DNA of 63,793 nucleotides, filler included, from Reclinomonas americana ATCC 50394 (GCA_048213135.1; 7 parts of 3 records of this genome joined end to end with filler, not necessarily neighbours in it); one strand, 5' to 3'; counted from the first letter of the whole stretch, positions 375 to 61,849 are shown. The notes: generated by a model not told the origin, from the sequence alone. Program-made: numbers and translations.

Positions 375-1784
375 CTACTCGTCGCCTTCCTCTTCTCCTC
401 CTTCGTCCTCGGCAGCTGCGGCGGCGGCGGCGGCGGAACCGCTGCTACTGCCGGCACCACCGTCGGCCTCGCGCACAGCCTCCGCCAGCCACTCGAGCAC
501 CACCTCCACCACTTGTCGCTCTTCGCCGAAAAAGTAGTGGTCGCAGCCTGTGTTAGCTGGTGAGATANNNNNNNNNNNNNNNNNNNNCATACTCTCATGC
601 ACAGACGGCGCGCGTGGAGCTGCTACCATCGAACTCGGCCTGCCACTTGGGCTGGGAGAGCTTTTCGTAGAACGAGCGGAAGCGAGACATGCCGGTGAAC
701 GAGTCTGTGGGACCACGAAAAATGAGGAGAAGGCAAGTGGAACGTAGAGGGGCGGTGGCACACACACCGCGAGACCCTGCAGCACACAATAATGAGATCA
801 CGGCGGCACTGGGAAGAAAAACACACACGCATACCATTGGTGAACAACTTGGGCTTTGGGCTGTCGACCAACTGCACGCAGGAACTCGCTCGTCAAGCAC
901 CGACCACCTCCACGACACACGCGCAAAGGCACGAGCACAAATAGAAACCTTCAGGTGATGCCCGAGCAGAAAACCGCTAAAGAACCCTGCCGGCATCGAG
1001 ATACCAGCGTAGCCTGACACGCGCTCCAACCGCGGCGCCACACTGCACGCTGCGAGCACACACACACACTCAGCCTCACATCGCCCCCCACTCAGGCAGT
1101 GGAGACGCACCAACACTGGCACCAAACGAGTAGCCGACAATCCACAACGAGTCGATTCGCGGTGGTCGTTTGGCCATCAGTGCCGCCTCCTGCGGCGACA
1201 CAGCTCCCTCCTCCTGCGGCTTCCCACTCTCGCGCTCCTGCATGAACGTCGACACCATCCACTCGTACGCAGTCACCACGTCCTGTCGCTCACTCGTGCC
1301 TCGCCACGACGACGATCCCACTGCAGTCGCAGAGCAATTGCTAAGGCATTGTGGTGAAGCTCTCTCTCTCTCTTTCCTTCTCTTGCGCAACTGGAGCGAC
1401 CGACTCCGCGAAAGTCAAAGCGCAGAGTGAGGTAGCCTCGAGCGGCGAGACTGACAGCCAGTGCACGCACGACGTTGTTCTTCATGTCGCCTCCGAACTT
1501 TGGATGCGGATGTGTAATGATCACACCAACTGATCATCCATGCGTGAGAGAGAGAGAGAGACAGCGTGTGTGTGCGTCTGTGGGAGAGGCAGAGGAGAGG
1601 CGCAACTGGGTCGCTGGAGTGAGTGCGTGTCGACGTAGCTGAGCATGCCGGAGAGGTTGGGCGCGGAAGGGTCGGAGGTCGACTCCAGGATCACATCCTC
1701 CTCGATCAGCATGGCCTTTTGTCGATCACGAGCTCGCTGGCGTGCCTGTGCGCGACTCGATGATGATGCCGAGGACGATGCCAT
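375..1784 (-). CDS. Alpha/beta-fold hydrolase (COG2945-like), multi-exon
   Basis: Spliced exons give IGVIITHPHPKFGGDMKNNVV...RFDFRGVGRS, nucleophile motif GYSFG, NGSRDSF (via 9-nt microexon 768-776) and CDHYFF; stop TAG 375-377. Confidence 0.88.
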
Positions 1785-2444
1785 GGCGTTCGAGGGAGGA
1801 CGATGACAACAACGAAGACATGGCAGGACAAACGGGCGTAGAAAGGGATGGCAACCAATGGGCGTACGGGGGGAGAAAGGCTCATTATATTCAGCAGCAA
1901 GTGCGTGGGCGGTGTGGAAAGAGAACAATTGGAGAAAGACAACGTACAGTGAGGTTGGGAGTGCGTGCGCACGACAAAAACACTAGGATGCGGAAACTTC
2001 TCCCCTTGTCCTGCACCAACCACTGCCAGCTGCTGCTACTGCCAAAGCCATTAAACGACACGCGACTTGGCAGACAGCAGAACATGGGTGGGGGCGCACA
2101 GACAAAAAAAGCACGATCACGAGAGGAGCGGCAATCACAGGGGGACATCCGTGGCGATCACAGAAAAAAAGGTGGCAAACCATCGACGGAGAAGACATGG
2201 ACTAGGGCGATGGCAAAGAGAAGAGAGAGAAACACACACATTTGGACACGCGCAAACACGCACAAAATAAGAAACAACAACAGGCAAACAAGAGGCTTTG
2301 ATAAAAAAGGGAGAAAGACGCAAGATGGGAATGAAAAAAACACAATTGGGATTTGATTGGGGTTGGAGCACGGGGGGTGGGGGGAGGCAGGACGGGGCCG
2401 CGGATCCGTGCTCCCGAGGGCGACACATGTGGGCACTAACGCGC

Positions 2445-3056
2445 TCACAGCTCGTCGAACTCATCCTCGGGGTCAAAGTCGAATGACGTCTCCCACTCGA
2501 CCTGCCACACACACTCACTCGTCAGCAAGCAGCGCAAAGGAAAGGGAAGGAGGAGAAGGAGGCAGAGAGGAGAGAGCAGGAGAGATGTGTGTGTGCCTGT
2601 GTCGAAACCAACCTCATCACTAGGTACTCGGAAGTGGAAACCAAAGTTCTTGCCACGCTCGATTCGACTGTAATGTACGCCGGCGTTCTTGCTGCTACTC
2701 GCGGTCGAATACTCGTCGTCTTCGTCCTCTTCTTGTGTCGACATTTCCATGTCGACGTGCTTGCTGCTCCAGCAGGGGATGATGATGATGATGAGTACGG
2801 CAATCAGTACACAACCATGACAAGAGGTCGTGTGAGCGCAACTTTTCGGCCGAACATGTGAAGAAGAGGATGCGGTGCATGCGCCGGTTGACAAAGAACA
2901 GGTAGAAGGACCAGATCTTGCCCTCGTCGAGGCCCGAGTCGGCGTCGGAGAAGGAGAAGATCTCGGCGTCCTTGACAGAGATGGCGGCGTCGATGGCGGA
3001 CCAGATCTCGCCCAAAAGCCGGGGCGGCAGCGCGGCGGGTGAAAGCGACAGGTTGA
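2445..3056 (-). CDS. MAF1: MAF1 (Pol III repressor), C-terminal half
   Basis: LLGEIWSAIDAAISVKDAEIFSF...GKIWSFYLFFVNRRMHRILFFTC is the MAF1 C box, followed by an acidic tail ending DEFDEL*. Confidence 0.88.
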   Translation of the reverse strand, partial: STCRFHPPRCRPGFWARSGPPSTPPSLSRTPRSSPSPTPTRASTRARSGPSTCSLSTGACTASSSSHVRPKSCAHTTSCHGCVLIAVLIIIIIPCWSSKHVDMEMSTQEEDEDDEYSTASSSKNAGVHYSRIERGKNFGFHFRVPSDEVGFDTGTHTSLLLSPLCLLLLLPFPLRCLLTSECVWQVEWETSFDFDPEDEFDEL

Positions 3057-8451: not shown

Positions 8452-11112
8452 ATGGATCTGAGTGCGCGTGGAATGGACATTGACATTGCCATTGCCTCTG
8501 CGCGTGGTGGTGGTGGTGATGCTGACGCAGAGGAGGGTGCGAGCAGTGTGGGAGGCAGTGGCGGTCGACTGGGCATTCATGTGGCGGAGGAGGGCGGTGA
8601 GTCGTCTGCGCCTTCATCGGCACCGTCGCCCATGTCGGCCAATCCATCGGATGAACGGTGGGCGTTGCGGCAGCAGGCGGTGTCGTTGCATCGAGGAGCA
8701 TCGTTGCGTTTGATGATATGATGATTGTTGATGACGAGTGGGTTGTTTTATTGCATATGTAACTTGTGCGTTTTTGTGCTGGGATAGAGTTCGACTGGGT
8801 GCGCGACGCAAGCTGGTGAGCCTCTTCTCTCCCTGTTTGTCTTTGTGTGCGTGTGTGCGTGTGGCCACCGTGGGACTCACTGATCCCTCTTGGCATGTTC
8901 GGTTGTTCAGAAATTTGGATGTGGTATGCTGCTTCTCCTCCTTCCCGCAGCGACCGGGCACCTGTTGTTTATGTAGCTGTGTTGTGTAGGATGGGACATG
9001 GACGAGCATGTGGGACTGGGAGCGGTCGATCTCGACGTGTCGTGCTGTTGCGCAGTTTGCATGTCCGCCTCCGCGACGACGATGCGTTATCTTGGCTGGG
9101 CACTCAATTTCGTTTGTGACTGCCCAGGCACGTTTTCGCGCAATGGTGAGCCGCAAGAGTCGGTGTGGTTCCGCAAACTGCGCAACGACAATGGATCGAT
9201 TGTGCACTCGGGCGATAACCGCACGGGCGAGGGCGATGGCGACGATGAGACGGTGCTGGTCGATTTTGATTTGGTGCCGGCCGGTGTGCATGTTGCGTTG
9301 CGCGTTGCAGTGTGTGGTGCCGCGCCCCCTACCACCGCGTTCGTTCTCACTCGGGTCTGCATGCACACAGGCGGTCTTTATTGTGCTGAACAGCTTTTCG
9401 GGCGTTTCATTCGAGCACGTTCGATCGGCGCACTGTCGTGTGCTGGACTCGAAGAACGACAAGCCCGTGTGGTGGATGTCGGTGGATGCGGCGGGTCCGC
9501 ACACAGGTTTGCGCTGACAGGCTCTGTGCACGCGCATTCGTGTTCACCCGACTCACTGCGACACAGGCCTGCTGCTGTGCAAGGTGTACCGCGAGGGCAT
9601 CGATTGGGTGCTGCACAGTGTGTCGGAACCGGCGCCGGGTCGGACCATTGACGACCTGATGCGTGTCATGCAGCAAGTGGTGGAGGCCGATTTTCCTTCT
9701 GGCGAGCCCTGCAGCGAGGAGAAGCTGTGCAATGCACTGAGCGTCGTTGCGTCGACCCCACACAAGAATGCGGAGGGAGTGTTCGCAGGCTGAAAATGTT
9801 GTTGTTGCATGGCAGATCCGACTGCTGCCCGACGGCGAAAACTACGGCTTCTCACAACTGGACCTGGCCGACGCTGGCATCCTCGACTTGGGTGGCACGG
9901 CGCGCATGTCGACGCTGTTGCACGTGAACATTTCGAAGAATGCCATTCGCGATGTGTCTCCCCTCGGCGAGCTGCCACACCTGCTCAGCTGTACCGCGCA
10001 ACACAACATTGTGCACGACATTACGCCGCTAATGCAAAGAGGTGCGACATTGGCGATGAGAGAGAGAGAGAGAGACAGAAGCGAGTGTGTGTGTGAAAGA
10101 GATACGAGTGTTGTGCTCACTGATAACCTCCCTCCCCCCCCNNNNNNNNNNNNNNNNNNNNCTACTACCCTACCCCCCACCCCCACCCCCCCCCACCCCC
10201 CACCACACACACACAGAATCACTTGAACACCTGGACATGCATGACAATAGTCTGCGTTACATGCGCGGTCAAGCCGCCTGCGCCAATCTGCAAACCCTAA
10301 TCCTCTCTGGTCAGTGTCTTCCACTTTCACTCTCTTCCCCTCCCTCCGCCTCACCATCGCTGGCGACAGAGAATTCCATCATGATCTTTGACATGACGGG
10401 CCTGATGTCTGTGCGACACCTCGACCTCAGCACCAACGCCCTCTCACAACTGCCGAAACTGGACTCGCCGGTGCTGGAGACCATGAGCCTGGCTAGCAAC
10501 GCCATTTTCAAGCTGGACGGCCTCTCTCGCTTCCAGTCCGTGCGCAGCCTCACCCTCAACACCAACAGAATTTCGTCGCTTGCCGAGTTTGCCACCGCCG
10601 GCCTCGTGCACCTCACCTCGCTGAATCTGTGCGACAACCACCTGGCCAGCATCAAGGAGTTTGCGCATCTGAGACACCTGCCGAGCCTGACTGAGCTGGA
10701 CGCCAGAGGTGAGCGCAAGCAGTGAGCGGACGACAGATGCGCCCCAGCATCCCTAACCCGCCCCTCGGTGAGCACAGAGAATCTGGAGGAGTTCCCACCT
10801 GGCGACATTCACGCCATGCTCTTTGACCCGCAAGGCATCGTCGTCACGACGCCCGGTCCCAACATAAGGATGCTGGTGAGAAGCGACAACCACCGCGCCA
10901 TCTCTTTCTCTCTCTCTCTTCTGCGACGGGCTGCTAACCTCTATCTTCGACAGAACGCCAGCGAGGTCGAAGAATCGGAAATCGAGGTCGCCCGCGAGCG
11001 TGCCGTATCTCTCTGGGAAGAGGAACAAGCCGCAATTGCCGCTGCTGAGGCCGCTGCCGCCGAGGCCGCACTGGAGGAGCGACCAATGAGTGAAATGGGC
11101 GAGCAGGACTGA
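8452..11112 (+). CDS. TerD/TerZ-domain + LRRC23-like leucine-rich-repeat fusion protein (~11 introns)
   Basis: Spliced: KFGCGWD...DLDVSC...SIVHSGDNRTGEGDGDDE...LNSFSGVSF...GLLLCKVYREGIDW (TerD), then in frame LSVIRLLPDGENYGFSQLDL...LLHVNISKNAIRDVSPL...LNLCDNHLASIKEFAHLRHLPSLTEL (LRRC23-like). Confidence 0.8.
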
Positions 11113-11203: not shown

Positions 11204-14200
11204 ATGCGCCAAGTGAGTGCTCTCCTTGTCGCCGCTCTGTTGCTGCTTGTTGCAGCGGCTGTGCTTGCCCCCGAGGCCGATGCTGCTGCAGTGGCACCGC
11301 CTATGTGGCCCAACAAGGTGTGCATTCACAGAGAGAGATAGAGAGCACACAAGTCTCTCACATGATGTGTGTGCGCAGTACACCATGGCCCTCGTGCTTG
11401 AGCTGTTGCGTCGTTTTTTCCGCGTGTGTGCATCATGATTGGTATTCCTCACACACACTGATGCTTGCAGGCCTTATGCGCACATTCGCGAGGTGACTTT
11501 TTTTGTTCTTGCTCTTCTCTCTCCTCGTGTGTATGCGCGCGTGCACTAACACACACAGGTACACACTCTGTGATGCAGCCCATTGAAGTGACTCTCGACC
11601 GTGATTCGGGTCGCGAGGCCATTCGCTACTATGATGGTGTGCTTTTTGCTCTCTCTCTTTGTCTCTCTTTTGAGTCTCTGCATTGCTCACTCTTGTGCCT
11701 AGGCATGGACACCACGCTGTACCGCAACGACCTCAACACCACGTTTGAGCTCTACCCGCGCAAGGATGTGGAGACGTGCTACGTTGAGTTCCGACACCAG
11801 CATGCACATGTGTGTGTCATGATGACATACATGCTCACTCTGCGTGTCAGATCGGCGTGTTCCACCACTCGCCGCCGCCGCTCACCTCCCTGCTGCCCGA
11901 CCTCACCGGCTACACGCTGGCCTCGGCACCCGTCGACATTGATGGTTGGTTGGCCATTGCGCTCCCGCTTCGTGTGACTGACGATGTGTATCCTTCTTAT
12001 GCGCGCGCCCGTGCAGGTGTCCGTTGCAATGCGTGGCAGTACACGGTGATGCATGGTGCCAAGGTAGCTTCTGGTTTGGGGCTTCTTTCTTTGTTCCGTT
12101 GTATAACAGCAGCTTGTGCAGCAAAACAACTACACCATGTACGTGTCGGCCGACGACAACAATCGCCCCGTGCGCTTCCACATCCAGTACGGCTACAATG
12201 TCATTGGTGGTGAGTCGGGAGACCACGCGCTGTGCTCACCACCCTCGATTCTCACTCCCGTGCACACAGGTTCGCACTACGACGAGTACGTCTTCAACTA
12301 CCTGTTCTTCCGGCCGCAGGAGGTGCGCGAGGACATGTTGATTGTTCCGCACATTTGCCAGAGCTCGTCGGCCACCCGCGGCGACGTGGATGGGCCGATG
12401 CACCGCCACGACCGCATGGGCTCGTTCTTCCGCAGCATCATGCCGTCCCCGCAGCACATGAGCGACGCCGTCGACGCCTCATCGCTCAAGTTCAACGAGT
12501 TTGTGCACGAGTTTGGCAAGGTAACACGCAATCCTGCACTGTCGATGACACCTGCTGCGCCGCGCTCATCCTTTGTATACGTCCAATCACACAGTCGTAC
12601 GCCACCGTCGACGAGTACACTCAGCGCCGCGCCAACTTTGAGCGCAACATGCGCCTCATCAACGAGCACAACGCGCGCACCGATGTGACTCACAAGCGTT
12701 GCGTGAACCGCTTTTCGTGGCGCTGTATGTGTGTGTAGCTGGTGTGCTGATGATAATCACAATGCAGTGCGCGCCAACAAGTGGGCCGACTGGCACCCCG
12801 AGGAGTTCCGCGCCACCATGCTGCTGAAGCGCGGATCGTGAGTACACGGTGTCGCCGCCGCGTTGTGAAGTGTGAGTGTACTCACAGCGGTGGATCTTGC
12901 AGGCGCCCCGAGACGAGCAATGCTCACGCCACGTTCAAGCACACTGTGAGTAGGCTATCACGCACTCGTTGTGTGATTGATTTCGTCCTCATGCACTCGT
13001 GATGCAGGGCGCCCCGGTCCCCCCGGCGTTCGACTGGCGCAGCAAGAATGTTGTGCTGCCAGTGCGCGACCAGGTTTGTCGTGTGAAGTGGGTCACGCTC
13101 TGGTCATCCATGTTGTCTCACATGTCTTTCTCTTCTTGTGCTTCTGTGTGCGTAGGGCGGTACGTATGCGGTAAGGCCTGTTCGCCCCCTTTTCACACCT
13201 CATCCCCTCATTCTTTTCGTGCCTCCAACCCGCAGTGTGCGGCAGCTGCTGGGCGTTCTCCGGCACCGGCTCCATTGCCTCCATGTGGGCCATCAAGACT
13301 GGTACGTGCATGCAGCTTGTTGAGATTGTCGCAACACTCAACGCTCACTGCTGCTTGCTTGCGTCACTCTCGCAGGCATTCTGGTGTGTGCATTACAGCA
13401 GCTTCCGTTTTGTTGAAACCGCATGACGACTGACACCTCATGTTTCCCTGTGCAGGCCAACCTGTCGCCCCAGCAGGCCATGGACTGCATGTGGGACTAC
13501 CCGAGTTGAGTTGGTTTCATCACATATGCGTTCATGAATTCCTGAACTCATTGATTTTCTCTCTGCAGACAACCAGGGTATGTGTCGCGGCAACAATCAA
13601 TGTGCCCAAGCGCCTCTCACCGGTGACTGTGTTTGTGTCGTACAGCTTGCAACGGTGGCAACGAGTGGGACGTCTTCCAGTACGCCATCGACAATGGTGG
13701 TATTGGCGCCATGATGGAGTACCCGTATCTGATGGCTGATGGTGCGTGTGCACGAGTTCTTCACCCTCTTTCATACCGCGCATACTAATACGCTCTTGCT
13801 CTCTTTCTCTGCTCGCCAGGCTTCTGCCACCCCACCTTCCCTGTGGCCAAGGTCACCAAGTACTTCAACACCACGGCGGGCGACGAGAACGACCTGGTTC
13901 GTTGTCAGCTGGCGCACCGGTTTGGTTGCTCCCAACGGACTCTCACTCGCAACACTTGTGTGTGTGCCTGCAGATGAATGCTGTGGCCACCCACGGCCCG
14001 GTGTCTGTCGCCATCATGGTGGCCGACTCGTTCATCTACTGTTGCGTGGTGGTGGCGTTGAGTGCCTCGTTTCCTGTTGTGTGCCTTCGTGACACTCACT
14101 TCGTTGAACACAGACGGATCTGGTTTGTGACTCCGATCTGCGACAAAGGGAATGCGTGCGCGTGATTGATCTCACTTGCATGCATGCAGGTGTGTACTAC

Positions 14201-14694
14201 GAGCCGACGTGCAAGAGCGACCCGGCTTCCCTCGATCACGGTGCGTGTCGATGCATGTGTCTCCAACACACTCTTCCTGACTTAAATTGCCGTGCTCGCT
14301 GCGCAGCCGTTCTGGTGGTGGGCTACGGCTCTGACGGCGCCGGACAGGACTACTGGATTGTGCAGAAGTTGCGTGAACCCGCGACGAATGCCATACGGTG
14401 CAAGAGGGTAGGCACTGATGTGTTGTGTTCCACGCTGCAGCTCGTGGTCGACCCACTGGGGTGATGAGTTGCGTGGCACATTGCTCGTGTGATCCAGCAC
14501 TTGTGCTGTCGTTTCGCTCACATGCGTTTCTCCTGCAGTGGCTACGTGAAGATGGCACGCAACCGCCAGAACAACTGCGGCATTGCGGTGCGCTGTTGCC
14601 GTGTGCTGTCTTAGCGGATGCTGCATGTTTGTTTCTTACCTATTTTTCCGCCCGAGCACAGACTACGCCCAACTTCCCGGTGTACGAGCCATAA
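11204..14694 (+). CDS. Papain-family (C1A) cysteine protease with N-terminal extension and I29 propeptide (CfaD/26-29 kDa proteinase-like); 26 introns
   Basis: Signal peptide; ERFNIN-like EYTQRRANFERNMRLINEHN; FDWR; QGVCGSCWAF; LDHAVLVVGYG; YWIVQNSWSTHWGDDGY; stop TAA 14692-14694. Confidence 0.95.
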
Positions 14695-20408: not shown

Positions 20409-20610
20409 NNNNNNNNNNNNNNNNNNNNNNNNNNNNNNNNNNNNNNNNNNNNTTAATTAATTAANNNNNNNNNNNNNNNNNNNNNNNNNNNNNNNNNNNN
20501 NNNNNNNNACGGTACGGTAACCGGTACGGTACGGTAAACGGTAAACGGGTAAACCGGTAACGGTAACGGTACGACGTACCGGTACGTACGTACGTACGTA
20601 CGTACGTACG

Positions 20611-46308: not shown

Positions 46309-49300
46309 ATGGAGGAACGCGGGCCGCCGTTCGACGAGAAGCTCGATGCGTTTCGGCACGAGTTCGAGGCGGCTAGTCGATCGCTGCGAGTGCGTTGCCG
46401 TTTTTTCGATCCACTGTCTGTGTGCGACTTGTCTCTCTGATTTCGCGCGCGCTCGTGTATGTGTGGGTGTGCAGAACCCAGCGATGGTGCACTCGGCGCA
46501 GAGTGCGTTGCAGGAGTGGCGCAAGGATAACGACAGCCTGGTGGCGTTCTATTACATTGTCGGTGAGATAGTGATCATCGTTGACTGAGAGAGGATGATG
46601 ATGGGGCTGGTTGTTGATCGTGCGCCCCCACGCAGCACACTCGAGGGAGTCCGATGCGCTCATGCAGGCGCTCTCTGCCATGCCGGAGGTGTACATGCGT
46701 GTGTGGCCGCTGCTGACACGAGAGTTTCGCGCCGAGTTGCGCGGGTTCCTCATGACGTATCTCGTGCATGTGGCGCCACGGTGCGTCGTCGCTGTTGTTG
46801 TCGTCTCTTCTCATTGCGCATCGTCGTTTACCATCAGAGTGTGCATGTATGTAGCGTGGGAGAACGCACAGTCAGTCGAATGACGGCACGTGCGTTGGCG
46901 TTGATGATCAAGCGCGACTGGCTCGACACCACCGACGAGGAGCACTATGTGTTGCATTCGCAGATTAGCGCGTTGCTGGAGATGGAGACGAGTGAGATGG
47001 TGAGCTTTCCTGTTTCGTTCTCTCAGACGTGGAGCATGCGTCGACGCTGATCTCATCGGCGCGAGTCCATCAGAAACTGGCCGGCACCATTCTGATCTCG
47101 GAACTGGTCACGGAATTCTGCTCAGTGTCGGGGTCGCGGATGGGCGTGTCGTGGGACTTTCACGCGACAGTACGCGCCTCGTTTCAGGAGAGCTTTTTGC
47201 ATGGCTCGTTTAGCGTCGCACTGCAACTGTTGCATCAGGTGGTGACCTCGGCAGTCGACGGGACTGTGCGAGAGGATGACGCACACTTGTTTGCGCACAC
47301 TGTAACGCTGCTCGGCAACATTCTGTCGTGGGATTTCATGGAGAGCAAAGGTGACTCCAGCGTTGTTGTGCACGGAATCGAGCTGTGCGACTCCACATTC
47401 ACGCTTTTGCGCACACGCAGAATCGAGTTCACTGCGTGCACTCATGTCGCCGTCGGTTGGTTCTGGCCAGGTCAAGATGTCTACGTCGTTTGTGGAACCC
47501 GGCGCTGCGTGGCACGACTTGGTGGCGAACGACTCGGTCTTGCTTCTGTTTCTCAAGGTCCGCTGCCTGCTCGGCTTGCTGCTGCTGTTTTGCCGTTCGC
47601 TCACGGAGAGTGCAGGCACACGAGCTCGCCCGTGCGGAGCCAACGACCTCGCACACCCTGTGTGAGATCATGATGCAGATGGCGTCACTGCGCGGCAGCA
47701 TCTTTGCGGACCTCAACAACGAGCTCCAGTTCATGTCGTCGCTGCTGACGGGCGTCATGGAGTGGTACCAGCAGTTGCGCGCTCACTTTTTTCTTTTTCC
47801 CGTCGAAACCACTGCGCCTCATCGAGTTGCATTGCTGTAAGTGCACCTGCTGATCTGGACGAGGACTTGCGCTCGACCGAGCTGCTCGACGTGTCGCAGA
47901 TTCTGCTGCGCTGCGTGCAAAACCTGACGCTGAAGAAGCTGACGCAGCTGCCGTGCTTCCAGCCACTGCTGTCGTTCATGATGGATCTCATCTGTTTCAC
48001 CCTCCACCCGCCCGCCGACGACGTCGAACAGACGTGGTTGCTGGAGAGTTTTGATGTGCTGCTGGACTGTTGGGCATTCATCGGTGAGGGCGTCGCTGGG
48101 TGTGTGGAGTGTGGACGAACGCGTACTCACTCTGTTTCGTCACCCTCGGCAGCTGTCGATGTGGAGTTACTGGCCACGTCGCATGTGCCCGTGGACGCCG
48201 CAGTACCGCAATGTGCGACCTTTATTTTCCAGACGTACGTGGATGCACGTTTGCGCAAGGGTCGATTGCAGTTGAATCTGGACGAGGATGATCCGGGCGC
48301 GGAGATTTTCGACGAGCAGGCGCTTCTCGACGCACAGGTACAAGCGGGGTGTGCCACGGAAAGAGAGTACGAGGTGTCCACTGCTGACCATCTCCCCGTC
48401 GCGCAGCTGGACCAAGTGGCTACCTTTGCTCGTATTTCGCCATACGTCAGCCTGGAACACGTGTGGAAGCTGTTGTCGGCACGCTTGCATGCATTTTCTG
48501 TTGTTGCGCACTCGGAAACCCCACCCGAGGCAATGCTCGTGGAACTCGGTGCGTTGATCCTTCGGCGGCATTCCCATTTGGGACAGTACAAAGCTCATCA
48601 TCGGCAACAGAGAACGGACCGGTGCACAGTATTGAGATGCTGGAGGACATCTACTGGCTTTTGCGCCTGTTGACTGCGGTGTTGGCGGACTCGCCCGATG
48701 GTGAGACACCGATGGTGCCGCGTTCGATTCTGGACATGTCTCGCGAAGTTGTGTTTCGCCGTCTTTCCCAACCATCACCTCGTCGCTTCAACTCAATCGG
48801 GGCGACTGTGGGCAGACTCCGGCTGACGGAAATCCGCTGGTCGCCATCTCCAATGGCATTGTGCAGTTTGCGTCGCTTGTGGCCGACCTGTTGACGCACT
48901 ACTCGCAGGTTTTTTCTGTTGACTTGCATCGCCACCATGCACTTCTCGTGCATGTTCTCACCCTCACACGGCACGCAGCACGTAATGGCCAGTCCGCGTG
49001 TGTTGGAGGTTCTCTGTGTGTTTCTGGAGCGATGGGCGGCCACGTACCTCATGCCAGACATTTCACAATACGAGCACTATTGGTCGGTCTCCCCCGTCGC
49101 TCGCTGGCGCACACACTCTCTCTCTCTCTTACATCCTCCCCAGTCCCACACTTGGCGAGCTGTACGGTCCCGAGTGCGATGGTGCCGTGCACGTCGTGCA
49201 AGTCGTTCTTCATTTGGCCTATGAGATTTTCCGATGTTTGCCCACCGAGCCCGTACTGTGTGGCAAGGTTCGACCGTGTCACGCGCTTCCTTGTGGCCGT

Positions 49301-51512
49301 GCTGTGCTCTTACTGTCCCTCGCACTCGCAAAGTTGTGCGACCTGCTCATCTCGCTGAGCAAGCGGAAAGCCATCGGCAACACCATGATCAACTTGGGTG
49401 CGTGGCCGTGCACAGTTGCAGTCTGTCACACTCGCCTCACTCACACGCGCCGCAGACTCGTGGTGGATGGTGGCGCTGGCCAATGTCGGCTTCGAGGGCA
49501 CATTCGCCAGTCATCCACTGAACATCCGAAGGTTCGGCCAGCCCTGACTGCCGAGCCACGCGTCGTTTCATTCTCTAAGTTGTGCACTGTTGTTGTTGTT
49601 GTTGTTGTTGCTGTTGTGCAGATCGCTTGTCGTGGCCGCCTGCCACGTGTGCTCGTCGCCTGATCGGCGGGAGGAGAGTGAGCAGGCGTTTCTCAGAATA
49701 CTCACCCCACTGCGAGTTACGTCTGTAAAGCGGACGGCATACGCATCCGTCTCGACTTACTCCTTGTGCCTGCAGGAACGGATTGTCGCTGTGGTGTCGG
49801 CTGACGACTTTGCGCAGTCCATAAGTTCGCCTGCGACGCAGGTGCGATTGCGAATCACAGCAGGGGGGAGAACTCGATCGCTGCATGTCAGCTTACTTTT
49901 ATCGCGCAGTCCACGATTCAGGCGCTGTTGGAAATGCTTCGCGGCACTGTACTGGCCTCGGATTCGAGTGTGGCCGAGCTTCTCTTCCTGTTCCTGACTG
50001 AATTCTTCATCATCCTGCGACATTTGCTGGAAATGTTCCACATGTACTCGCCAGTGACGACGCTGGTCATGCAGCTGGTGTGCGACATGGTCGACATCCA
50101 GGTGCGTCACTGCGACAGCATCGGTGAATGACGACGGCATGGACTCGGATAGGCTTAATGTCGTGCGCTATGTGCAGTTTGTGCTCGTGCCCAACACGCA
50201 CACGCAGCTGGTATATGCACTCTGTACGGATGTGCTCAAGTGGTACTCTCGCCAGAACACTGGTGAGTGTGCCTCATTCTTGCGGCCTTTTTCTTTCTTT
50301 CTCGCGCCTCATTGTGGCGCACATTACTCAAGGTCGGTCCGCACCAGCGCGGTTGTCGCACGAGCAAGTGGAGTCGGAAGACGATGAGCAAATCACAGAC
50401 CTCATCATCCTGCTGAAGATGCTCACGCACTTGTTCAACAAGGACTTTCTCGATTTCTCGCTGGATGGCCGTTGCGTAACAAAAGCAGGCGCACGCAGCG
50501 GTCGTAGCTGACATTACTTGCTTTTCTATTCTAGCTGCTGCGCCAGAGGCCGTGGCCGAGGGCGAGCTGACCGTGGCACATGTCGTCTTTTTCGGCCTGG
50601 CGACACTGATGCCGCTGCTGCGACCGGAGCTGTTCGAGGTTTGCCGCTGCTCGTGCGGTTTCCAACGCCTGTTGCTGACTCGCGCGCACACGCGCACACG
50701 CGTAAACAGTACCCCAACCTGGCGTCGGAGTTCTTCCACTTTTTGCGCTATCTGACCACGGTGTTCCCCGAGCGTGTTGCCGAGTTGCCGGCTGATATGT
50801 TCGGGCATGTGATGTCTGGCATCGAGTTTGGTCTTCGCCAATTGTTGCGTTGTGCACTGCTGCTGCTGTTGTCCACCTTGTGCGCAATAAGTACCTTACC
50901 GACAAGCACATCGCACAGACACAACGGCAAAGTGTGCCAGCTGGCGCTGGAGGCGCTTGCGGCACTCGTATTCTACCACTTGCGCTACCAAGCCGGTGAG
51001 TGGATGCAACAGCATGATGCACTTTGCTTCGGTCTCTCACACCCCCTTCGTTCACAGATGGTGGCGTGCCACTACTTCTCCAATCGGAGCCACCGGCACT
51101 CTCGCGTTTCCAGCATCAGCTGCTCAACATGTTGGTGTTTGAGGACGTGAACTCGGATCTGTTGGACCAGGCCGCCGACGCCATGCTGGCTCTCGTGCTT
51201 GCCGACGAGGTTTGCCACGACGACGCATGTGCAGTTGTGCTTCCTTCGCTCCTCCTCTTCTTCTCATTCTGCTGCTCCACCCAGGGCTCGTTCCGCGCTC
51301 TGGCCGCCGAGTTGATGGGCTACGTGCTGCACGACAGCTACCGAGAACCCGTGGAGCAGGCATTCAGTCGCCTGCTGATTGTGGCCACCGCACCGTCGCC
51401 AACACATTCGAGGCTACCGCAGGCCGCCATCACCAGCGAGATGAAGCATCACTTTAGGAAAGCGTTGGTGCAGTTTGTCACCGACGTCCGCTGCTATGTT
51501 CGCATGAAGTAG
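46309..51512 (+). CDS. XPO4: Exportin-4-like karyopherin, many introns
   Basis: ALMIKRDWLD; LISELVTEF...MGVSWDFH...SFQ; ILSWDF; MQMASLRGSIF; EDIYWLL...VLAD..GETPMVP; KDFLDFS; QYPNLASEFF; FVTDVRCYVRMK*. Confidence 0.88.
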
Positions 51513-51554
51513 AATCTCTATATAAACACACACTGTCATAATTCTCCTCTTTAC

Positions 51555-54500
51555 CTATATGTATGCACTAGCCTTGGCGGCGATGAGTTGCGCGGAACTA
51601 CCCCTTGTGAATTTCCGCCAGTCGTCTGACTCCAGGAAGCGGCTGCACGCACGCGTACACAGACCGTCAGCAAATGAGAATATTGGGAAAGAGAGCACGG
51701 GCACGAAGACAAACCAGAACGAGTCTTGCTGCAGATGTGACGGCCACATGAGAGACAAGTGAGTACAAAACGCGAGGGCAAAAAAATTTGTCGAATAGTC
51801 ACGACCGCCGACGCACCTGCATGACCATCACGGCATATCGCGAAATGTCGTCAAAGATTGTCTCGATGCCGCCCTCGGCCTCGTCCGCATCGAGCCCGGC
51901 GGCCGTCAGCGGCACTGAGGACATTTCGATAAAGCTGCTGCGCGGCGCCTGTGCAGAGCCCCGATACTGCAGAGGCAAGAAGGCTTCATCACCGTGATCT
52001 TGCACGGCCTGCCGCACCGGTGCCGCCAGCATAATGGCCAAATTGAGGCCGTGCAGCGCATTGACGCTCACAAAATCAGTGTACATCTGCCGACCCAGCG
52101 TCTTGATCCGCGCTGCCACATCATCGCCATGCGACTGCGAGTATCGCCTGCACAGCTTGTGGTACACCTCGAAGCGCTCCAGGAACCACAACTGCGGAGA
52201 TGGAGGGTCGGTCAGCCCGGACGTGACAAACAAGCAACACAAGAAACGCAACATTTTCCACGCTGAATTCGGAGACCTGTGTCAGGGAACAACAAAGTGA
52301 GACAAACCAGCAACTCAGCGCACTGCGACTACGTGTCGTGACGCACCAGGAACTGGCGAAAGAGTGCTCTGCGAAGGAACACAGCACGAAGATGAGGTGT
52401 GTGTACACGACAACGACATCGAAGCAGGGTCGCACCTCGATTCTTGATTGGCGAGCACCTCTTCCAGGCGTCCAGACGGGAACAACGCACGCTCAATCGC
52501 ACGCCGTCTGTGGTCGACAGTGGAGTATCGCGTGCGGCCCCACTTGAAGTAGCCTCGAATGATCGGAATACCGGAGATCAACCACGACGTGTTGAGGAGG
52601 GCCCACAGCAGGAAGTTCAACAGATTGTGCGCGGAACTCGAATACCACTGGACGCACAGAGACGGCGATGAGAATTCAGAGAGGTAGAGTGAGCACGTCT
52701 GCAGCATGGCACTCAACATTGGTGCTGGTCAGGCCAATGAGGAACGCCACGGCCACCNNNNNNNNNNNNNNNNNNNNNNNNNNNNNNNNNNNNNNNNNNN
52801 NNNNNNNNNNNNNNNNNNNNNNNNNNNNNNNNNNNNNNNNNNNNNNNNNNNNNNNNNNNNNNNNNNNNNNNNNNNNNNNNNNNNNNNNNNNNNNNNNNNN
52901 NNNNNNNNNNNNNNNNNNNNNNNNNNNNNNNNNNNNNNNNNNNNNNNNNNNNNNNNNNNNNNNNNNNNNNNNNNNNNNNNNNNNNNNNNNNNNNNNNNNN
53001 NNNNNNNNNNNNNNNNNNNNNNNNNNNNNNNNNNNNNNNNNNNNNNNNNNNNNNNNNNNNNNNNNNNNNNNNNNNNNNNNNNNNNNNNNNNNNNNNNNNN
53101 NNNNNNNNNNNNNNNNNNNNNNNNNNNNNNNNNNNNNNNNNNNNNNNCGGACTCACCAGTTCTAATCGCACAGAGAAAAAGTCCGGAGGGTGCCGCATGC
53201 TTCACGATGAAACGGGAGCGTGTCAGAAAATTGTCATGTACGTGCCGAGCAGCAGCAACAACAACACATACCGCGCGAGCGTAAATGCCGCAAACGCCAT
53301 CAATGCACAGGTCACGGTGGAGGTAAAGTAGTAGGCACCACGGGTGAGGAAGACGCATGAGCACCACGCGGGCGTCACGTCGGTGTAAAATGCCTCGCGA
53401 CCAATCGTCAGTGTCAACTGTGCACAGAGCAAGGATTTTCACGCGCCCACTCACACGCACAGAAAGAGACAACACGTACAAGCAAGAGAAGAAACGACTC
53501 ACCACCAACGCCAGCGGCAACAGGACGGTGACCTCGACAATGATCACAATCTTCGCGAGATAGGCGTCGGTCACCCGCGCGCCAAATGAAAAGATCTTCC
53601 TGGCGTCTGCTGCGGGCACAAACAGCTCCGTCCCGTCCTCCTCTTGCATGCTGGCCTCGGCGCGTTTCCGCGAGACGTCAAACGTGAGCCACAGGCGCAC
53701 GATGCGCAGCGTCAGCACCGACACCATCGGCACAAACTGCGCAAGCGAGAGACAGAGTTGGCGGCCAGTTCAGCACACGTACATGCGCCAGCAGCACAGT
53801 CCATCCACGCAACAGTAAGAAACGTGACGAAAGCCAGCGTGTTGCACCTGCATGGAAACACACAAACAAGTGTCGATGAGCAATATCGCTCCTTGGGAAG
53901 ATGCGCGTGCATGCCCCCAGTTCACCATGGGTTCGACGAGCCAAAGTACACCTGCAACGCGGCAACATCAGCGCACACTTAACACACGAAGCGAGAGCAC
54001 TACGCGCACTCACCGCACTTCCGAGCGCAATCATGAAATGATTGAAGTAGAACACAAACAGGAGCTGTGTGCACGGAACACACACACACTAGTGAAAATC
54101 ACCCTCTCCCACATGTAGGCTGCCACAACGCACCCTAGGTGAGCGCGCTCGCATGTACGGCTCACGCCGATGTGACCAGATCAACTGTTGTGAAACGCGC
54201 GCGCATGTGTGCGTGTGTGTGAGAGAGAGGGAAAACACACACAAAAAAAGGAGTTGCTAGACACGACGCACCAGCATGATCCCAGTCAATGGCACCATTG
54301 ATAAGCTGTACAGAGCGCTGCTCGGGCACACATATACACACACGTGGCGCACACAGAGACACACACACAGGAGAGACACACACAAATCAGCGCATGTTCG
54401 TATATCCACCGAGCACATAGACGCACGCACATATATGGACACATGAAGCGTATAGAGAGAGAGAGAGGAGAAGAGAGAGAAGAGAGGAGAAGAGAGAGGA

Positions 54501-54677
54501 GAAGAGTGCGCGCAACACACAAACCTCAGCGGCGAGCGCAGAATGCCGTGCAACTCTGAGAGACACACGCACACACACAGTCAGTCATACGCACACATGC
54601 AGCAGCAGCAAACAACAGCAACGTGGTGGCACACCTGCGACCTCGGTTGGAGAGGCACACTGGCCTCCCGCAGACAT
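51555..54677 (-). CDS. Multi-pass membrane (7TM-like) protein with C-terminal RGS domain, copy A (internal gap)
   Basis: Several hydrophobic helices including SVLTLRIVRLWLTF; RGS: LEEVLANQESRALFRQFLVSEFSVENLWFLE...MYTDFVS...LNL...IFDD...MQQDSFCRFLES. Confidence 0.85.
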
Positions 54678-54733
54678 GATCGCGGAGCACAGCAAGCACA
54701 GTCTGTTCGTTCACTCGGATTGTTCTTTGAAAA

Positions 54734-54909
54734 ATGGAGGTCGACGAGGGCAGTGGCGAGGCCTCATCGCCCTCCACCAACGCCGTTCTTCAGCTGTTTG
54801 CCACCATCAACGCCGAGTACGATGCGCAAAAGGAGCAACGAGAGCGATTGATTCGCGTGGCCCGCGATCTAACACGCACCAGCAAGGATGTGATTAGCGC
54901 CTGTCAGCG
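54734..54909 (+). CDS. Translin/TRAX-family protein, exon 1, copy A (3'-partial)
   Basis: MEVDE...AEYDAQKEQRERLIRVARDLTRTSKDVISACQR|gtgagc. Confidence 0.75.
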
Positions 54910-55026
54910 GTGAGCCTCTCTCTCTCNNNNNNNNNNNNNNNNNNNNNNNNNNNNNNNNNNNNNNNNNNNNTTAATTAATTAANNNNNNNNNNNNNNNNNN
55001 NNNNNNNNNNNNNNNNNNNNNNNNNN

Positions 55027-56636
55027 ACCATGACGGTGCACAGCTTCAGGATCTACACGCATACAGAGAGAGAGAGAGTCAATCTCAAGAGCGACCATGA
55101 GTAGAAAGTTGTTGACGGACTCACCAGTTCTAATCGCACAGAGAAAAAGTCCGGAGGGTGCCGCATGCTTCACGATGAAATAGGAGCGTGTCAGAAAATT
55201 GTCATGTACGTGCCGAGCAGCAACAACACATACCGCGCGAGCGTAAATGCCGCAAACGCCATCAATGCACAGGTCACGGTGGAGGTAAAGTAGTAGGCAC
55301 CACGGGTGAGGAAGACGCATGAGCACCACGCGGGTGTCACGTCGGTGTAAAACGCCTCGCGACCAATCGTCAGGGTCAACTGTGCACAGAGCAAGGATTT
55401 TCACGCGCCCACTCACACGCACAGAAAGAGACAACACGTACACGCAAGAGAAGAAACGACTCACCACCAGCGCCAGCGGCAACAGGACGGTGACCTCGAC
55501 AATGATCACAATCTTCGCGAGATAGGCGTCGGTCACCCGCGCGCCAAATGAAAAGATCTTCCTGGCGTCTGCTGCGGGCACAAACAGCTCCGTCCCGTCC
55601 TCCTCTTGCATGCTGGCCTCGGCGCGTTTCCGCGAGACGTCAAACGTGAGCCACAGGCGCACAATGCGCAGCGTCAGCACCGACACCATCGGCACAAACT
55701 GTGCAAGCGAGAGACAGAGTTGGCGGCCAGTTCAGCACACGTACATGCGCCAGCAGCACAGTCCATCCACGCAACAGTAAGAAACGTGACGAAAGCCAGC
55801 GTGTTGCACCTGCAGGGAAACACACAAACAAGTGTCGATGAGCAATATCGCTCCTTAGGAAGATGCGCGTGCATGCCCCCAGTCACCATGGGTTCGACGA
55901 GCCAAAGTACACCTGCAACGCGGCAACATCAGCGCACACTTAACACGTGAAGCGAGAGCACTACGCGCACTCACCGCACTTCCGAGCGCAATCATGAAAT
56001 GATTGAAGTAGAACACAAACAGGAGCTGTGTGCACGGAACACACACACACACTTGTGAAAATCACCCTCTCCCACACGTAGGCTGCCACAACGCACCCTA
56101 GGTGAGCGCGCTCGCATGTACGGCTCACGCCGATGTGACCAGATCAACTGTTGTGAAACGCGCGTGCATGTGTGTGTGAGAGAGAGGGAAAACACACACA
56201 CGAAAAAAGGAGTTGCTAGACACGACGCACCAGCATGATCCCAGTCAATGGCACCATTGATAAGCTGTAAAGAGCGCTGCTCGGGTACACATATACACAC
56301 ACGTGGCGCACACAGAGACACACACACAGGAGAGACACACACAAATCAGCGCATGTTCGTATATCCACCGAGCACATAGACGCACGCACATATATGGACA
56401 CATGAGGCGTATAGAGAGGGAGAGGAGAAGAGAGAGAAGAGAGGAGAAGAGAGAGGAGAAGAGTGCGCGCAACACACAAACCTCAGCGGCGAGCGCAGAA
56501 TGCCGTGCAACTCTGAGAGACACACACACACACACACAGTCAGTCATACGCACACATGCAGCAGCAGCACACAACAGCGACGTGGTGGCACACCTGCGAC
56601 CTCGGATGGAGAGGCACACTGGCCTCCCGCAGACAT
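55027..56636 (-). CDS. 7TM-RGS protein, copy B (N-terminal portion, 3'-partial)
   Basis: Same exon structure as copy A with a few substitutions (e.g. PTE/PSE, YMW/YVW). Confidence 0.75.
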
Positions 56637-56694
56637 GATCGCGGAGCACAACAACAAGTCTGTTCGTTCATTCGATTTAATTGTTCTTTGAAAA

Positions 56695-57075
56695 ATGGAG
56701 GTCGACGAGGGCAGTGGCGAGGCCTCATCGCCCTCCTCCAACGCCGTTCTTCAGCTGTTTGCCACCATCAACGCCGAGTACGATGCGCAAAAGGAGCAAC
56801 GAGAGCGATTGATTCGCGTGGCCCGCGATCTAACACGCACCAGCAAGGATGTGATTAGCGCCTGTCAGCGGTGAGCCTCTCTCTCTCTTCTCTCTCCCGT
56901 CTTCCTCCCTTCTGGGGTGCGCGTAGGTTGACAGGGCCGTGCACAGTCTGCCGACACGCAAACCACTGGAGAGCGGAGTGTGTCGGCGTGTGCTGAGCAG
57001 TCTCGAGACCATGTATGGCATTGCGACGAGTGTGGCCGAGGGGTTGCAGGGCGACAGCTACTGGAAGCTTCGTCT
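56695..57075 (+). CDS. Translin-associated factor X (TRAX)-like, copy B (3'-partial)
   Basis: RERLIRVARDLTRTSKDVI...CQR|AVHSL...GLQGDSYWKLR resembles TRAX (ER.IK.SRDIT..SK..I; LQG..W+.R). Confidence 0.75.
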
Positions 57076-58452: not shown

Positions 58453-58486
58453 AGCTTGCACTCGGTCGTTGGACATTGCACATACT

Positions 58487-58520
<34 letters not shown>

Positions 58521-59039: not shown

Positions 59040-59399
59040 GAACTCTATCCATTCTTATCGTATGTGCAATCTATGCAAAGTTCGATTCTCCAAAGTCCAC
59101 AATCCAAGGCGAGGATAGATTGGTGACAGCCTAAGTTCTGCCGGATCGCTCGGGAACTCCGCTGCCGGGAATGGACTTTAGGTGGACATAGGCCCAGGCA
59201 AATCTCTGCCAAAGTTGTCGGCGAACTTTAGAAACCTATCATTCCCCAAAGTAGGACTTTAACGTAAGTCTGGCGCCTAATCTTGAACCTAAAGTCAACC
59301 CCATCTATCAAGATTAGAAACTAATCGGCGGCAAAGTCCAACTTACACCAGACGTTACTTTGGATTGGGGGGACATTTCAGACATTGCTTCGCGCAGTG
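59040..59399. other. AT-richer non-coding island with clustered AAAGT/ACTTT motifs (possible transposon subterminal region)
   Basis: 10 AAAGT/ACTTT copies in ~290 bp, plus inverted repeat ctaatcttga/tcaagattag. Confidence 0.45.
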
Positions 59400-59807
59400 N
59401 NNNNNNNNNNNNNNNNNNNNNNNNNNNNNNNNNNNNNNNNNNNNNNNNNNNNNNNNNNNNNNNNNNNNNNNNNNNNNNNNNNNNNNNNNNNNNNNNNNNN
59501 NNNNNNNNNNNNNNNNNNNNNNNNNNNNNNNNNNNNNNNNNNNNNNNNNNNNNNNNNNNNNNNNNNNNNNNNNNNNNNNNNNNNNNNNNNNNNNNNNNNN
59601 NNNNNNNNNNNNNNNNNNNNNNNNNNNNNNNNNNNNNNNNNNNNNNNNNNNNNNNNNNNNNNNNNNNNNNNNNNNNNNNNNNNNNNNNNNNNNNNNNNNN
59701 NNNNNNNNNNNNNNNNNNNNNNNNNNNNNNNNNNNNNNNNNNNNNNNNNNNNNNNNNNNNNNNNNNNNNNNNNNNNNNNNNNNNNNNNNNNNNNNNNNTT
59801 TTCGCAG

Positions 59808-60650
59808 GCTTCGGCAACGCGCACTTCATGTCGTTCACCAACCGCGCGCCGCGAGAGCACACGGACGGCACCGCGGGCGAGAGCCGCCTGATTGAGCTGG
59901 AGCTCAAGGTGATTGCCGACGTCGGCCTCATTGGCTACCCGAATGCCGGCAAGTCGACGCTGCTGCGGCGCGCGTCGCACGCGCGACCCGACATTGCCGA
60001 TTATGCGTTCACCACAGTGCGGCCCAACATTGGCGTGGTGCGCTACACCGACCACGAGACGCTGCATGTGGCCGACATTCCCGGCCTCATCGACGGCGCG
60101 CACATGAACATTGGGCTCGGCCACGAATTCCTGCGCCATGTGGTGCGCACCAAGGTGCTGCTGTTTGTGGTCGACGCCACCGCACGGCACTACAAGGCCG
60201 GCATCCGCAAGAAGCCCCACAAGCGCGACGAGCAGGAGTACGCGGAGACGGCACGTATCGAGCCCACACAGGCACTCGATCAGCTGCTGCTTGGTACGCA
60301 AGGGGCCGGGGAGAAGAGAGGCAGGCAGGCCGGCAGTGGTCTGACCTTTTGTTCCCTGTTTCGCAGAATTGTACCACTACGACGCCACACTGCTTCGCAA
60401 GCCGGCACTGGTGGCACTGAACAAGATGGACGCCGTCCCAGCGGAGGAGCACGCCGCACTGCTGCGTCGCGTGCGCCGACACAGCCTGTGGCCAGTATTT
60501 CCGATTGCCGCCTCCAACGAAGACGATGCAGCGTGGTCCCGCAAGATGGAACACCTGTGGCAAGCCGTACGACACACAATAGAGAACACCAACGATAGTG
60601 CTGGAGACGAGGCCGCAGCCATGCAGCGCGTGCAGAGACTACTCAAGTAA
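59808..60650 (+). CDS. Obg-family GTPase (MTG2/GTPBP5-like), 5'-partial
   Basis: [73 protein letters not shown]. Confidence 0.93.
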
Positions 60651-60698
60651 GCAGTGAATTTTTGTGTATTGTGTTTTGTGAGCAAAGCTCGCCGTGAG

Positions 60699-61849
60699 AT
60701 GGGTCTCTTTGGCAATCGCGCGGGCTCTGAGGCCGAGGGCGGAGGTGGCGCATTTGGGGCACGTGGGCAAGCCGAGAGTGAGGCCATGGTCAAGGCGTGG
60801 AAGAGAGAGCTCAAGAGCCAAGATCGAGAGCTCAACCGCAGCATTCGTCGTTGCGCGCGCACACTCACAGAGAATAGGGGGAGAGAGAGTCGTTCTCCTC
60901 ACACAAGCGCTGTCTCTCACACGCACGTACATGCACAGGACTGGAGCTGGAGGAGGGCAAGTTGATGCGCAACTGCAAGGTCATCACGAAATCTCACTCT
61001 CACTCTCTCTCTCTCACTCTCGCTCTCACACACTCGTGTGACACAGGCGGTGGCCAAGCGACAAGAGATGCAGGCGGTGCGGACAATGGCCAAGGAGATT
61101 GCGCATGCTCGGGTGGCTCGCAATCGACTGCACGCGGCTCGGGCGCGCGTCAACTCAGTGATGATGGAGTTGCAGCATGCCAGAGGTGCCTCTCTCTCCA
61201 CCACTTCCTCCTCCTGCTCCTCATGTGCCTTGTCCTGATCTTCTCCTTCTTCTTCGTCTTCCTCCAGCAATGATCAAGGCCACTGGACATTTGCGAATGG
61301 GCGCCGATGTCATGCACCACATGAATCAGCTGGCCAACGTGCCCGAGATCACACAGACTGTGGCGCGACTGACACAGGAGATGATGCGAGTTGCGTGGCC
61401 TGTACATGAGCAGGAGGTCGGCGATGATCCTCGCTCACCCTCGAACACCACAGAACGAGGTGCTGGAGGAGCAAATGGAGGATGCAGTGGAGGGGATTAG
61501 TGATCAGTACGAGGACGACGCGGATGCGCTGGTGGAGGCGGTGATTATGGAGGTCACGGGAGAGCAGCTGGCCACGGTCAAGCCGATTCCGTCGCAGAGG
61601 TTGCCGCGTGGGACGGCGGCCGCTCAGCCTGTCGCCGAGGCGGTACGGCCACAGCGTGTGGCCATGGCTGCCGACGGAACTCTGGTGCGCGATGCTGGCG
61701 GCTCATCGTCGTCTTCTTCTTCCACAACAACAACGACCACCACCACGACGGCATCGTCGGCAGCAGCAGCCGCCGACGCTGCGTCGTCTTCCGAACTCGA
61801 TGCGCTCTCTCAGAGACTCGCGGCATTACGATCAGGGTCGCAGCTGTAA
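60699..61849 (+). CDS. CHMP3: ESCRT-III subunit VPS24/CHMP3
   Basis: MGLFG...KAWKRELKSQDRELNRSIRRLELEE...MAKEI...ARVNSVMMEL...MNQLANVPEI...LTQEMM...EEQMEDA...LSQRLAALRS*. Confidence 0.85.

Follow-up and report, generated by a model that had tools for sequence, protein, structure and literature searches.

We analysed the splice donors of a ~64-kb window, the whole stretch of DNA considered here, from the genome of Reclinomonas americana ATCC 50394 (GCA_048213135.1); all counts below refer to this window and derive from sequence only. It is a gapped draft (6235 N; G+C ~58% over determined bases), and its genes are extremely dense in introns. A Pfam search of stop-free open reading frames (ORFs) named TM2, TerD, cathepsin-like protease (I29 and peptidase C1) and minus-strand GH30 glucosylceramidase genes, and further TH1/NELF-D, VPS9-domain, amine oxidase, Tubby, Rpb3-type polymerase subunit and NAD-binding oxidoreductase genes. 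The closest protein matches were metagenome or transcriptome sequences at ~47% identity. Our subject is a second kind of 5′ splice site in these genes, which reads GTTG(C/A)G at the intron start and carries its conserved G at +6. The initial annotation had listed 37 such donors, held that they follow almost exclusively exon ends other than G, and proposed that they are routinely read in a register shifted by one base.

A protein-to-genome spliced aligner was written that uses GT...AG and BLOSUM62 only, with no donor-motif prior, and it was rerun with all 16 donor dinucleotides permitted, i.e. with the GT requirement removed. The resulting homology set holds 39 introns, namely 25 from the protease gene, 13 from the GH30 gene and the one at 29002 in the RPB3 gene; the unselected set of 38 is the same without 29002, which had been pre-selected. 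Donors 17069 (where homolog P0007 supports read-through) and 11228 (in the signal-peptide region) were left out, as was the ambiguous pair 13742/13748, and 12575 was replaced by 12521, taken from P0026. A GT-only ab initio finder (codon bias plus an acceptor and length prior) provided a motif-blind but noisy second sample; in a benchmark, 26 of its 35 predictions agreed with the 38 known introns. The motif was scored in the statistics as GTT[AG][ACT]G. A codon-bias finder lacking signals proved too weak, and an ORF-bridging test was uninformative as splice evidence because chance keeps frames open in GC-rich DNA. The plus-strand introns 29002–29091, 9047–9127 and 14241–14306 are stop-free and of a length divisible by three, and long spurious ORFs cross them; ORF length is therefore a poor exon guide in this genome.

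The cathepsin-like protease gene (11282–14682, +) encodes an N-terminal domain, I29 and peptidase C1, as judged from Pfam matches to exon ORFs and from spliced alignment to P0027. This 544-residue ortholog, obtained from an exhaustive protein search, shares the three-part architecture and covers the whole gene. Homologous-protein searches with the protease exons gave no matches, and Pfam assigned only 4 of 35 short protease exon ORFs to I29 or Peptidase_C1. The P0027 alignments (scores 843–986) resolve ~26 introns of 58–86 nucleotides (nt) in ~545 codons, and introns begin at all seven donors listed for this gene. With the last exon base in lower case before the cut, they are t/GTTGCGT...GCAG (11405–11470, phase 2), c/GTTGAGT...TCAG (11783–11850, phase 0, also predicted in an earlier GT-only ab initio run), c/GTTGCGT...GCAG (12698–12767, phase 1, also placed by P0026; the split codon CTG gives the homolog's Leu), a/GTTGAGT...GCAG (13505–13568, phase 1; split AAC, homolog Asn), t/GTTGCGT...ACAG (14041–14113, phase 1, also placed by P0022; split TAC, homolog Tyr), a/GTTGCGT...GCAG (14368–14440, phase 2; AA/C, the catalytic Asn) and a/GTTGCGT...GCAG (14468–14538, phase 2, after a 27-nt exon). 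All seven were also obtained with any donor dinucleotide allowed, and those at 13505 and 14041 are each followed by a 9-nt microexon.

Microexons of 4, 8, 9 and 9 nt lie at 13156–13159, 13376–13383, 13569–13577 and 14114–14122 (+) in this gene, flanked by introns of 64–82 nt. They restore conserved residues and the exact homolog length (DQ/Gv/CGSC, TG/IL/ANLS, YPn/NQa/CNGG and FIYy/GSg/VYYEP). Two tandem donors, g/GTGCGT at 13742 and t/GTGCAC at 13748 (+), stand 6 nt apart; the no-gap P0027 alignment favours the weaker downstream donor and P0026 the upstream one, and the two may form an alternative 5′ splice-site pair.

On the opposite strand, the GH30 glucosylceramidase gene (14836–17243, −) was identified by Pfam GH30 and GH30C, homologs P0001–P0007 and spliced alignment. 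With P0003, 14 introns were aligned and 13 kept (55–73 nt), 3 of them with a confirmed shifted donor: a/GTTGAGC...GCAG (16113–16183, phase 2), t/GTTGCGT...GCAG (15707–15772, phase 1; the split TAC gives the homolog's Tyr) and c/GTTGCGT...GCAG (15425–15490, phase 0; the next codon, TAC, is the homolog's Tyr). Each was also found in the any-dinucleotide alignment, and that at 15772 was predicted ab initio as well. Metagenomes were scanned for related GH30 loci, and none of the 85 pattern matches was confirmed.

The remaining homology-placed case is a 90-nt intron of the RPB3 gene, t/GTTGAGT...GCAG (29002–29091, +). It is in-frame and stop-free, so one PDB search spans both sides and fixes its limits: residues 29–61 and 62–130 of human RPB3 match ORF residues 61–93 and 124–190, such that human residues 61 and 62 abut while ORF residues 94–123 are skipped. 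A second listed donor of this gene, a/GTTGAGT (29332–29338, +), is consistent with the search; its boundary was not fixed by PDB alignment of the exon downstream because the flanking loop is too variable.

The motif GTT[GA][CAT]G was present on the expected strand at the first intron base of all 37 listed donors, and the reported tally of exon-end (−1) bases was exact (A 16, T 12, C 8, G 1). Homology placed 11 of the 37 without any donor-motif prior (7 protease, 3 GH30, 1 RPB3). At the 10 protease and GH30 sites the intron start was unchanged (10/10) once any dinucleotide was permitted, and all ten begin with GT. Homology support is absent for the other 26; the GT-only finder recovered 8 of these (1606, 9047, 19124, 19738, 48748, 50471, 52252 and 61390), and 23220 was predicted in an earlier ab initio run from which signals were absent. 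The single listed site with G at −1, 7813, does carry the motif, but its status as a donor is doubtful because the reading frame runs on through the proposed 75-nt intron.

The position of the cut could be read by eye from the alignments. At six junctions, |GT...AG| splicing gives a codon equal to the homolog residue: Leu at 12698, Asn at 13505, Tyr at 14041, Asn at 14368, Tyr at 15772 and Tyr at 15490. Sliding the cut by one base would instead give Arg, Ser, Cys, Lys, Cys and Asp, respectively, and these six boundaries are unambiguous because the base 3′ of the acceptor is non-G. The claim made for 14368 was borne out by the P0027 alignment, in which AA|C yields the catalytic Asn of Q-N-S-W; a PDB alignment of the exon upstream ends at the Gln immediately before this Asn. 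Judged from these alignments, cleavage in the shifted class is shown to lie 5′ of the GT, as had been proposed.

Placement at donors greatly exceeds chance. The motif makes up 177 of all 7827 GT sites in the window (2.26%) and is found at 10 of the 38 unselected homology-placed donors (binomial P=9e-9), which upholds the claim that the class is abundant here. As a word, GTTGCGT is twice as common as in shuffled sequence (30 occurrences versus 15.1 +/- 4.0), and 0 of 100 shuffles reached 30. The hexamer GTTGMG is not enriched by word count (101 versus 106.9); the case therefore stands on placement and not on word counts. One GTTGCGT, at 14557–14563 (−), lies antisense to the last protease exons and is the complement of A-R-N-R codons, so some copies of the word are no donors.

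The link to the exon-end base is strong. Where the exon ends in a base other than G, 11 of the 14 donors in the homology set of 39 carry the motif, compared with none of the 25 that follow G (Fisher p=2.2e-7); setting aside the pre-selected 29002, the figures are 10/13 and 0/25. The GT-only ab initio introns outside the protease, GH30 and RPB3 set behave likewise, with 12/64 after non-G and 0/63 after G (p=2.8e-4). For the protease gene, 7/9 after non-G and 0/17 after G had been reported; we recovered 7/9 and 0/16, or 0/17 if the ambiguous 13742 is included. The 14 homology-placed donors after non-G comprise 11 GTTG[CA]G (8 GTTGCG, 3 GTTGAG) and 3 GTGAG[TC], so that a strong intronic motif stands at 14/14 and exon-end match and intronic match anticorrelate. 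Donors after G are degenerate (GTGTGC, GTGACT, GTAGCT, GTAACA, GTTGGT, GTTTGT, GTACGT, GTGCGT and others), and the three homology-placed donors with G at neither +5 nor +6 all follow an exon-end G.

In most eukaryotes position +3 is nearly always a purine. Ordinary donors after G in this window often have T there (GTTGGT, GTTTGT, GTTCGT), in 6/28 homology-placed and 13/53 ab initio cases; examples are 11945, 13074, 13897 and 14123 (+) and 16057 and 15664 (−).

Apart from the donor, shifted and ordinary introns are alike. Median length is 70 nt for the shifted and 67.5 nt for the ordinary class, and the acceptor is mostly GCAG in both (9/11 and 20/28). The AG end itself holds by construction, as the aligner required it, and the junctions fit the homologs without gaps. 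A CUSAY branch-like motif (CT[CGA]A[CT], picked by eye and without a shuffle control) is present in 34 of the 39 introns with its A mostly 11–35 nt from the 3′ end, and is missing in 2 of the 11 shifted ones. The U12-type donor consensus is /RTATCCTT. None of the 37 listed donors matches it (0/37), all reading GTT[GA][CAT]G.

Comparison of donor logos suggests how the motif relates to the ordinary one. Base frequencies at −1 of the class (A 43%, T 32%, C 22%, G 3%) resemble those at −2 of ordinary donors, with a Jensen–Shannon (JS) divergence of 0.017 versus 0.566 for the same position, and +7 of the class resembles ordinary +6 (JS 0.055 versus 0.314). Slid by one base, the class fits the window's own ordinary donor logo, which is the object of this comparison rather than U1; in the normal register it fits poorly. 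Aligned on the conserved block, G/GTGMGT and /GTTGMGT differ in one base, and the class amounts to an ordinary donor with one extra nucleotide between +2 and +5. A role of G+1 as stand-in for the −1 G would fit these logos. The donors and the anatomy of their introns are best explained as genuine GT-AG introns of the major spliceosome that obey a second consensus at the 5′ splice site, H|GUUG(C/A)GU.

Further listed donors are spread over other genes of the window. In the TerD-domain gene, t/GTTGCGC opens an 81-nt in-frame intron (9047–9127, +; GT-only ab initio), and t/GTTGCGT ends the main TerD exon (9292–9298, +). PDB alignment of the TerD ORF did not reach the exon upstream of 9047 and fixed no TerD boundary; for 9292 it was consistent without being decisive. 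The ab initio finder preferred an in-frame GT 6 nt upstream of 9292, and likewise chose a GT a few bases away at 29332, 3 nt upstream at 9746 and 60850, and 9 nt downstream at 39708. The TH1/NELF-D-like gene (Pfam TH1) has a listed donor t/GTTGCGT with a 66-nt intron ending in GTAG (19124–19189, +; ab initio), and another 66-nt intron starts at c/GTTGCGT (19738–19803, +; GT-only ab initio). The 23220 donor, a/GTTGCGT, belongs to a 76-nt intron of the VPS9-domain gene (23220–23295, +). A HEAT-repeat, exportin-like gene holds a/GTTGTGT (48748–48815, +, 68 nt) and c/GTTGCGT (50471–50546, +, 76 nt), both predicted ab initio. Ab initio introns were further found at a/GTTGCGC (1530–1606, −, 77 nt) and, with the GT-only finder, at a/GTTGCGT (61390–61453, +, 64 nt) and t/GTTGCGT (52192–52252, −, 61 nt). 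The remaining listed sites are motif-only, without homology or ab initio support: 1391, 2842, 7813, 8169, 17243 (in the GH30 gene) and 53813 on the minus strand, and 4619, 8703, 9746, 39708, 47774, 49716, 50844 and 60850 on the plus strand.

The amine-oxidase-like gene carries a listed donor a/GTTACGC (25355–25361, −) after an N-terminal exon ending ...IGAGLAGLT, as read from the sequence, with Pfam Amino_oxidase downstream. The intron is likely 61 nt long and ends in AAAAG; its end thus seems to be AAG rather than CAG. The first exon (within 25300–25415, −) encodes only M-A-S-R-P-A-I-V-V-I-G-A-G-L-A-G-L-T, a dinucleotide-binding motif. A PDB search with the ORF downstream of 25361 gave no match.

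Three candidates had not been listed. Two are known from ab initio prediction only, t/GTTACGG in the VPS9 gene (22416–22504, +, 89 nt) and t/GTTGAGT (52648–52717, −, 70 nt). The third (t/GTTGCGTGGA; 55769–55775, −) is a copy of donor 53813; the sequence around it is tandemly duplicated (1.96 kb), and the copy lies in the second unit. The two units (53148–55110 and 55116–57070) repeat with a period of ~1960 nt at 90–98% identity, and a minus-strand gene has the same introns in both; the duplication may be a haplotype or assembly artefact, because N gaps adjoin the junctions. Paired 44-N gaps 12 bases apart at 20409, 26351, 41396, 54927, 57093 and 61940 suggest an artefact of scaffolding. The window is rich in (GT)n/(CA)n runs, with 317 occurrences of GTGTGT over both strands.

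We propose that these donors follow a general seesaw rule, by which an exon-end G would permit a degenerate intron start and a non-G end would demand a strong intronic match. That match, UG(C/A)GU, would mostly stand one nucleotide further from the cut, so that G-U-U-G-M-G-U would mimic the ordinary G|G-U-G-M-G-U with one change. On this view, U1 small nuclear RNA (snRNA) would base-pair with the block in a register displaced by one nucleotide at the early stage, as the U6 ACAGA box probably would at the later one. The first intron base, G+1, would then stand where the exon's −1 G normally does, with the surplus U left unpaired as a mismatch or bulge, and cutting by the catalytic core (U6/U5/Prp8) would stay at the sole available GU. 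We give this explanation as a whole, second consensus and displaced pairing together, even credence. In this lineage, a 5′ splice-site helix displaced by one base would be a constitutive half of the splicing code, with non-G exon ends served mainly by GUUGCGU donors, which ordinary U1/U6 would read in the displaced register, or else a U1/U6 variant of their own that is complementary to GUUGCGU. We put this further step forward tentatively, with slightly more doubt than confidence. Should such a variant exist, the genome would have two systems of donor recognition, with the exon-end base deciding between them.

Several points weigh against this proposal. The register derives from logos only, and class positions +3 to +6 were fixed by the definition used in the initial annotation and prove nothing; the independent positions are −3 to −1 and +7 onward. 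Of these, −3, which is T-poor in both classes, stays put (JS 0.01 for the same position, 0.09 when offset). C stands at +5 in 31 of 37 class donors and at the equivalent +4 in 31 of 81 ordinary ones, so the class does not simply repeat the ordinary motif. Only three genes supply the cases verified by homology. With the 5′ end of human-type U1 (AUACUUACCUG; PMC4856993), the shifted duplex (G:C9, U×C8, U:A7, G·ψ6, C×ψ5, G:C4, U:A3) has no advantage over H|GUGCGU paired in the normal register, so the preference must have some source besides U1 pairing energy. The earlier reading of a routine shifted register stands in part: the donors are real, abundant in the window, tied to non-G exon ends and cut before the GT, whereas U1 pairing energy does not account for the preference. 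With no energetic gain and a marked preference for C+5, a bulged register and a divergent or second U1/U6 stay live rivals.

In a bulged-U or asymmetric-loop register, the normal anchor (G+1:C8, U:A7) would be kept, a U or the loop U-G-C would be extruded, pairing would resume at G+6:C4 and U+7:A3, and G+1 would be no substitute for the −1 G. The motif is exactly an ordinary donor plus one U, and human sites that resemble a one-nucleotide insertion between +2 and +5 use such registers (PMC4856993 and PMC11162779). An exon-end G should nevertheless add a base pair and be tolerated under this arrangement, and the motif is absent after G in both the homology-placed (0/25) and the ab initio samples (0/63); the likeness of the −1 logo of the class to ordinary −2 also speaks against it. 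These arguments are not decisive, because donors after G may need no strong intronic motif. We consider the bulge unlikely.

A divergent or second snRNA could alternatively be directly complementary to GUUGCGU in the normal register, be it through the U1 5′ end, a variant U1 or the ACAGA region of U6. The strong preference of the class for GCG (C+5 in 31/37) would not be favoured by human-type U1, which also gives the shifted motif no energetic advantage, and expressed variant U1 genes are reported in humans (PMC3561869, PMC10870369). An Rfam scan of the window found no family at gathering score and, even at E<=5, no spliceosomal snRNA, returning only chance matches resembling microRNA, small RNA and small nucleolar RNA; moreover, all other intron features are common to both classes. 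We regard this explanation as rather improbable.

The motif might also record ancestry instead of recognition, if an introner with a GTTGCGT end had inserted at non-G sites. Very uniform intron lengths (55–90 nt) and extreme density, with ~26 introns in ~545 codons of the protease gene, would suit such intron gain; ordinary introns, however, have the same lengths. All-against-all blastn of the 39 introns gave no families and only chance matches of 10–16 nt, the best being a 12-nt donor end common to 12698 and 14368 (E=0.014). As these introns are mutually dissimilar, we rejected recent introner copies as the source of the class, and an intron-gain relic in general seems very improbable. Finally, miscalled splice sites or a spurious assembled T in true GTGCGT donors are conceivable in a draft with this many gaps, in which homology cannot exclude an indel site by site because an intronic one-base indel leaves the frame intact, but such an artefact is scarcely credible given that homology fixes the intron starts even without the GT requirement, that no known cause adds a T only after non-G (11/14) and never after G (0/25), and that the motif is kept in both diverged duplication units (53813 and 55775).

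The proposed displaced helix would matter in several ways if confirmed. These donors have neither −1G nor +5G, as their exon ends in another base and their conserved G stands at +6. The two bases compensate mutually in humans, and donors without either are expected to be nearly unusable under that rule (PMC8283771); here they are the norm after non-G ends. Hundreds or thousands of introns in this lineage would naturally separate the register of binding from the site of cleavage, and they could show whether U1, U6, U5 or Prp8 sets the cut and how much drift a donor code tolerates. A gene finder trained on donors of the GTRNGT type would place such introns wrongly. Our own GT-only finder preferred an in-frame GT a few bases away from 9292, 9746, 29332, 39708 and 60850, so annotation of this genome needs a two-class donor model.

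A literature search limited to open-access papers, with supplements and subscription papers outside its reach, found no report of such a donor class; among the listed open-access papers naming the motif words, judged by title or the start of the abstract, none concerned splice donors. Shifted, bulged and asymmetric-loop registers between U1 and the 5′ splice site do exist in humans (PMC4856993), where, by one estimate, ~1.5% of 5′ splice sites use a non-canonical register of any kind (PMC11162779). The class here is close in form to the mammalian shifted-register sites (Roca & Krainer 2009, as cited in PMC4856993 and PMC11162779), which are likewise cut at GU, with a consensus-matching block one base downstream and G+1 positioned to pair in the place of the −1 G. 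Those sites are rare and atypical, whereas ours make up 10 of 38 unselected introns and 11 of 14 donors after non-G; their A-rich motif also differs from GUUGCGU, for which the register is deduced from logos. Bulge (+2/+3) and asymmetric-loop registers (Roca 2012; Tan et al. 2016, PMC4856993) share the form of a consensus plus one nucleotide between +2 and +5, but retain the −1G anchor, and the motif is absent here after G.

Two donor classes have been described, AG//GU recognised mainly via U5 loop 1 and //GURAG mainly via the U6 ACAGA box (Parker et al. 2022, PMC9803359). The strict trade-off between exon end and intron start in the window resembles this scheme and the −1G/+5G seesaw (PMC8283771). 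Unlike //GURAG with its G+5, however, 11 of our 14 donors after non-G read //GUUGMG with G+6, and 3 of 14 read //GUGAG. For the human STAT3 tandem donor D2, a U6 helix shifted by one nucleotide was proposed (PMC11162779); as here, one extra nucleotide separates the cut from the U6-pairing block. STAT3 D2 is a single alternative donor tested with suppressor U6, whereas the donors described here would form a constitutive class, known from their sequence. The seesaw and the shifted registers are already known; what is new is an intronic-motif donor class with its conserved G at +6.

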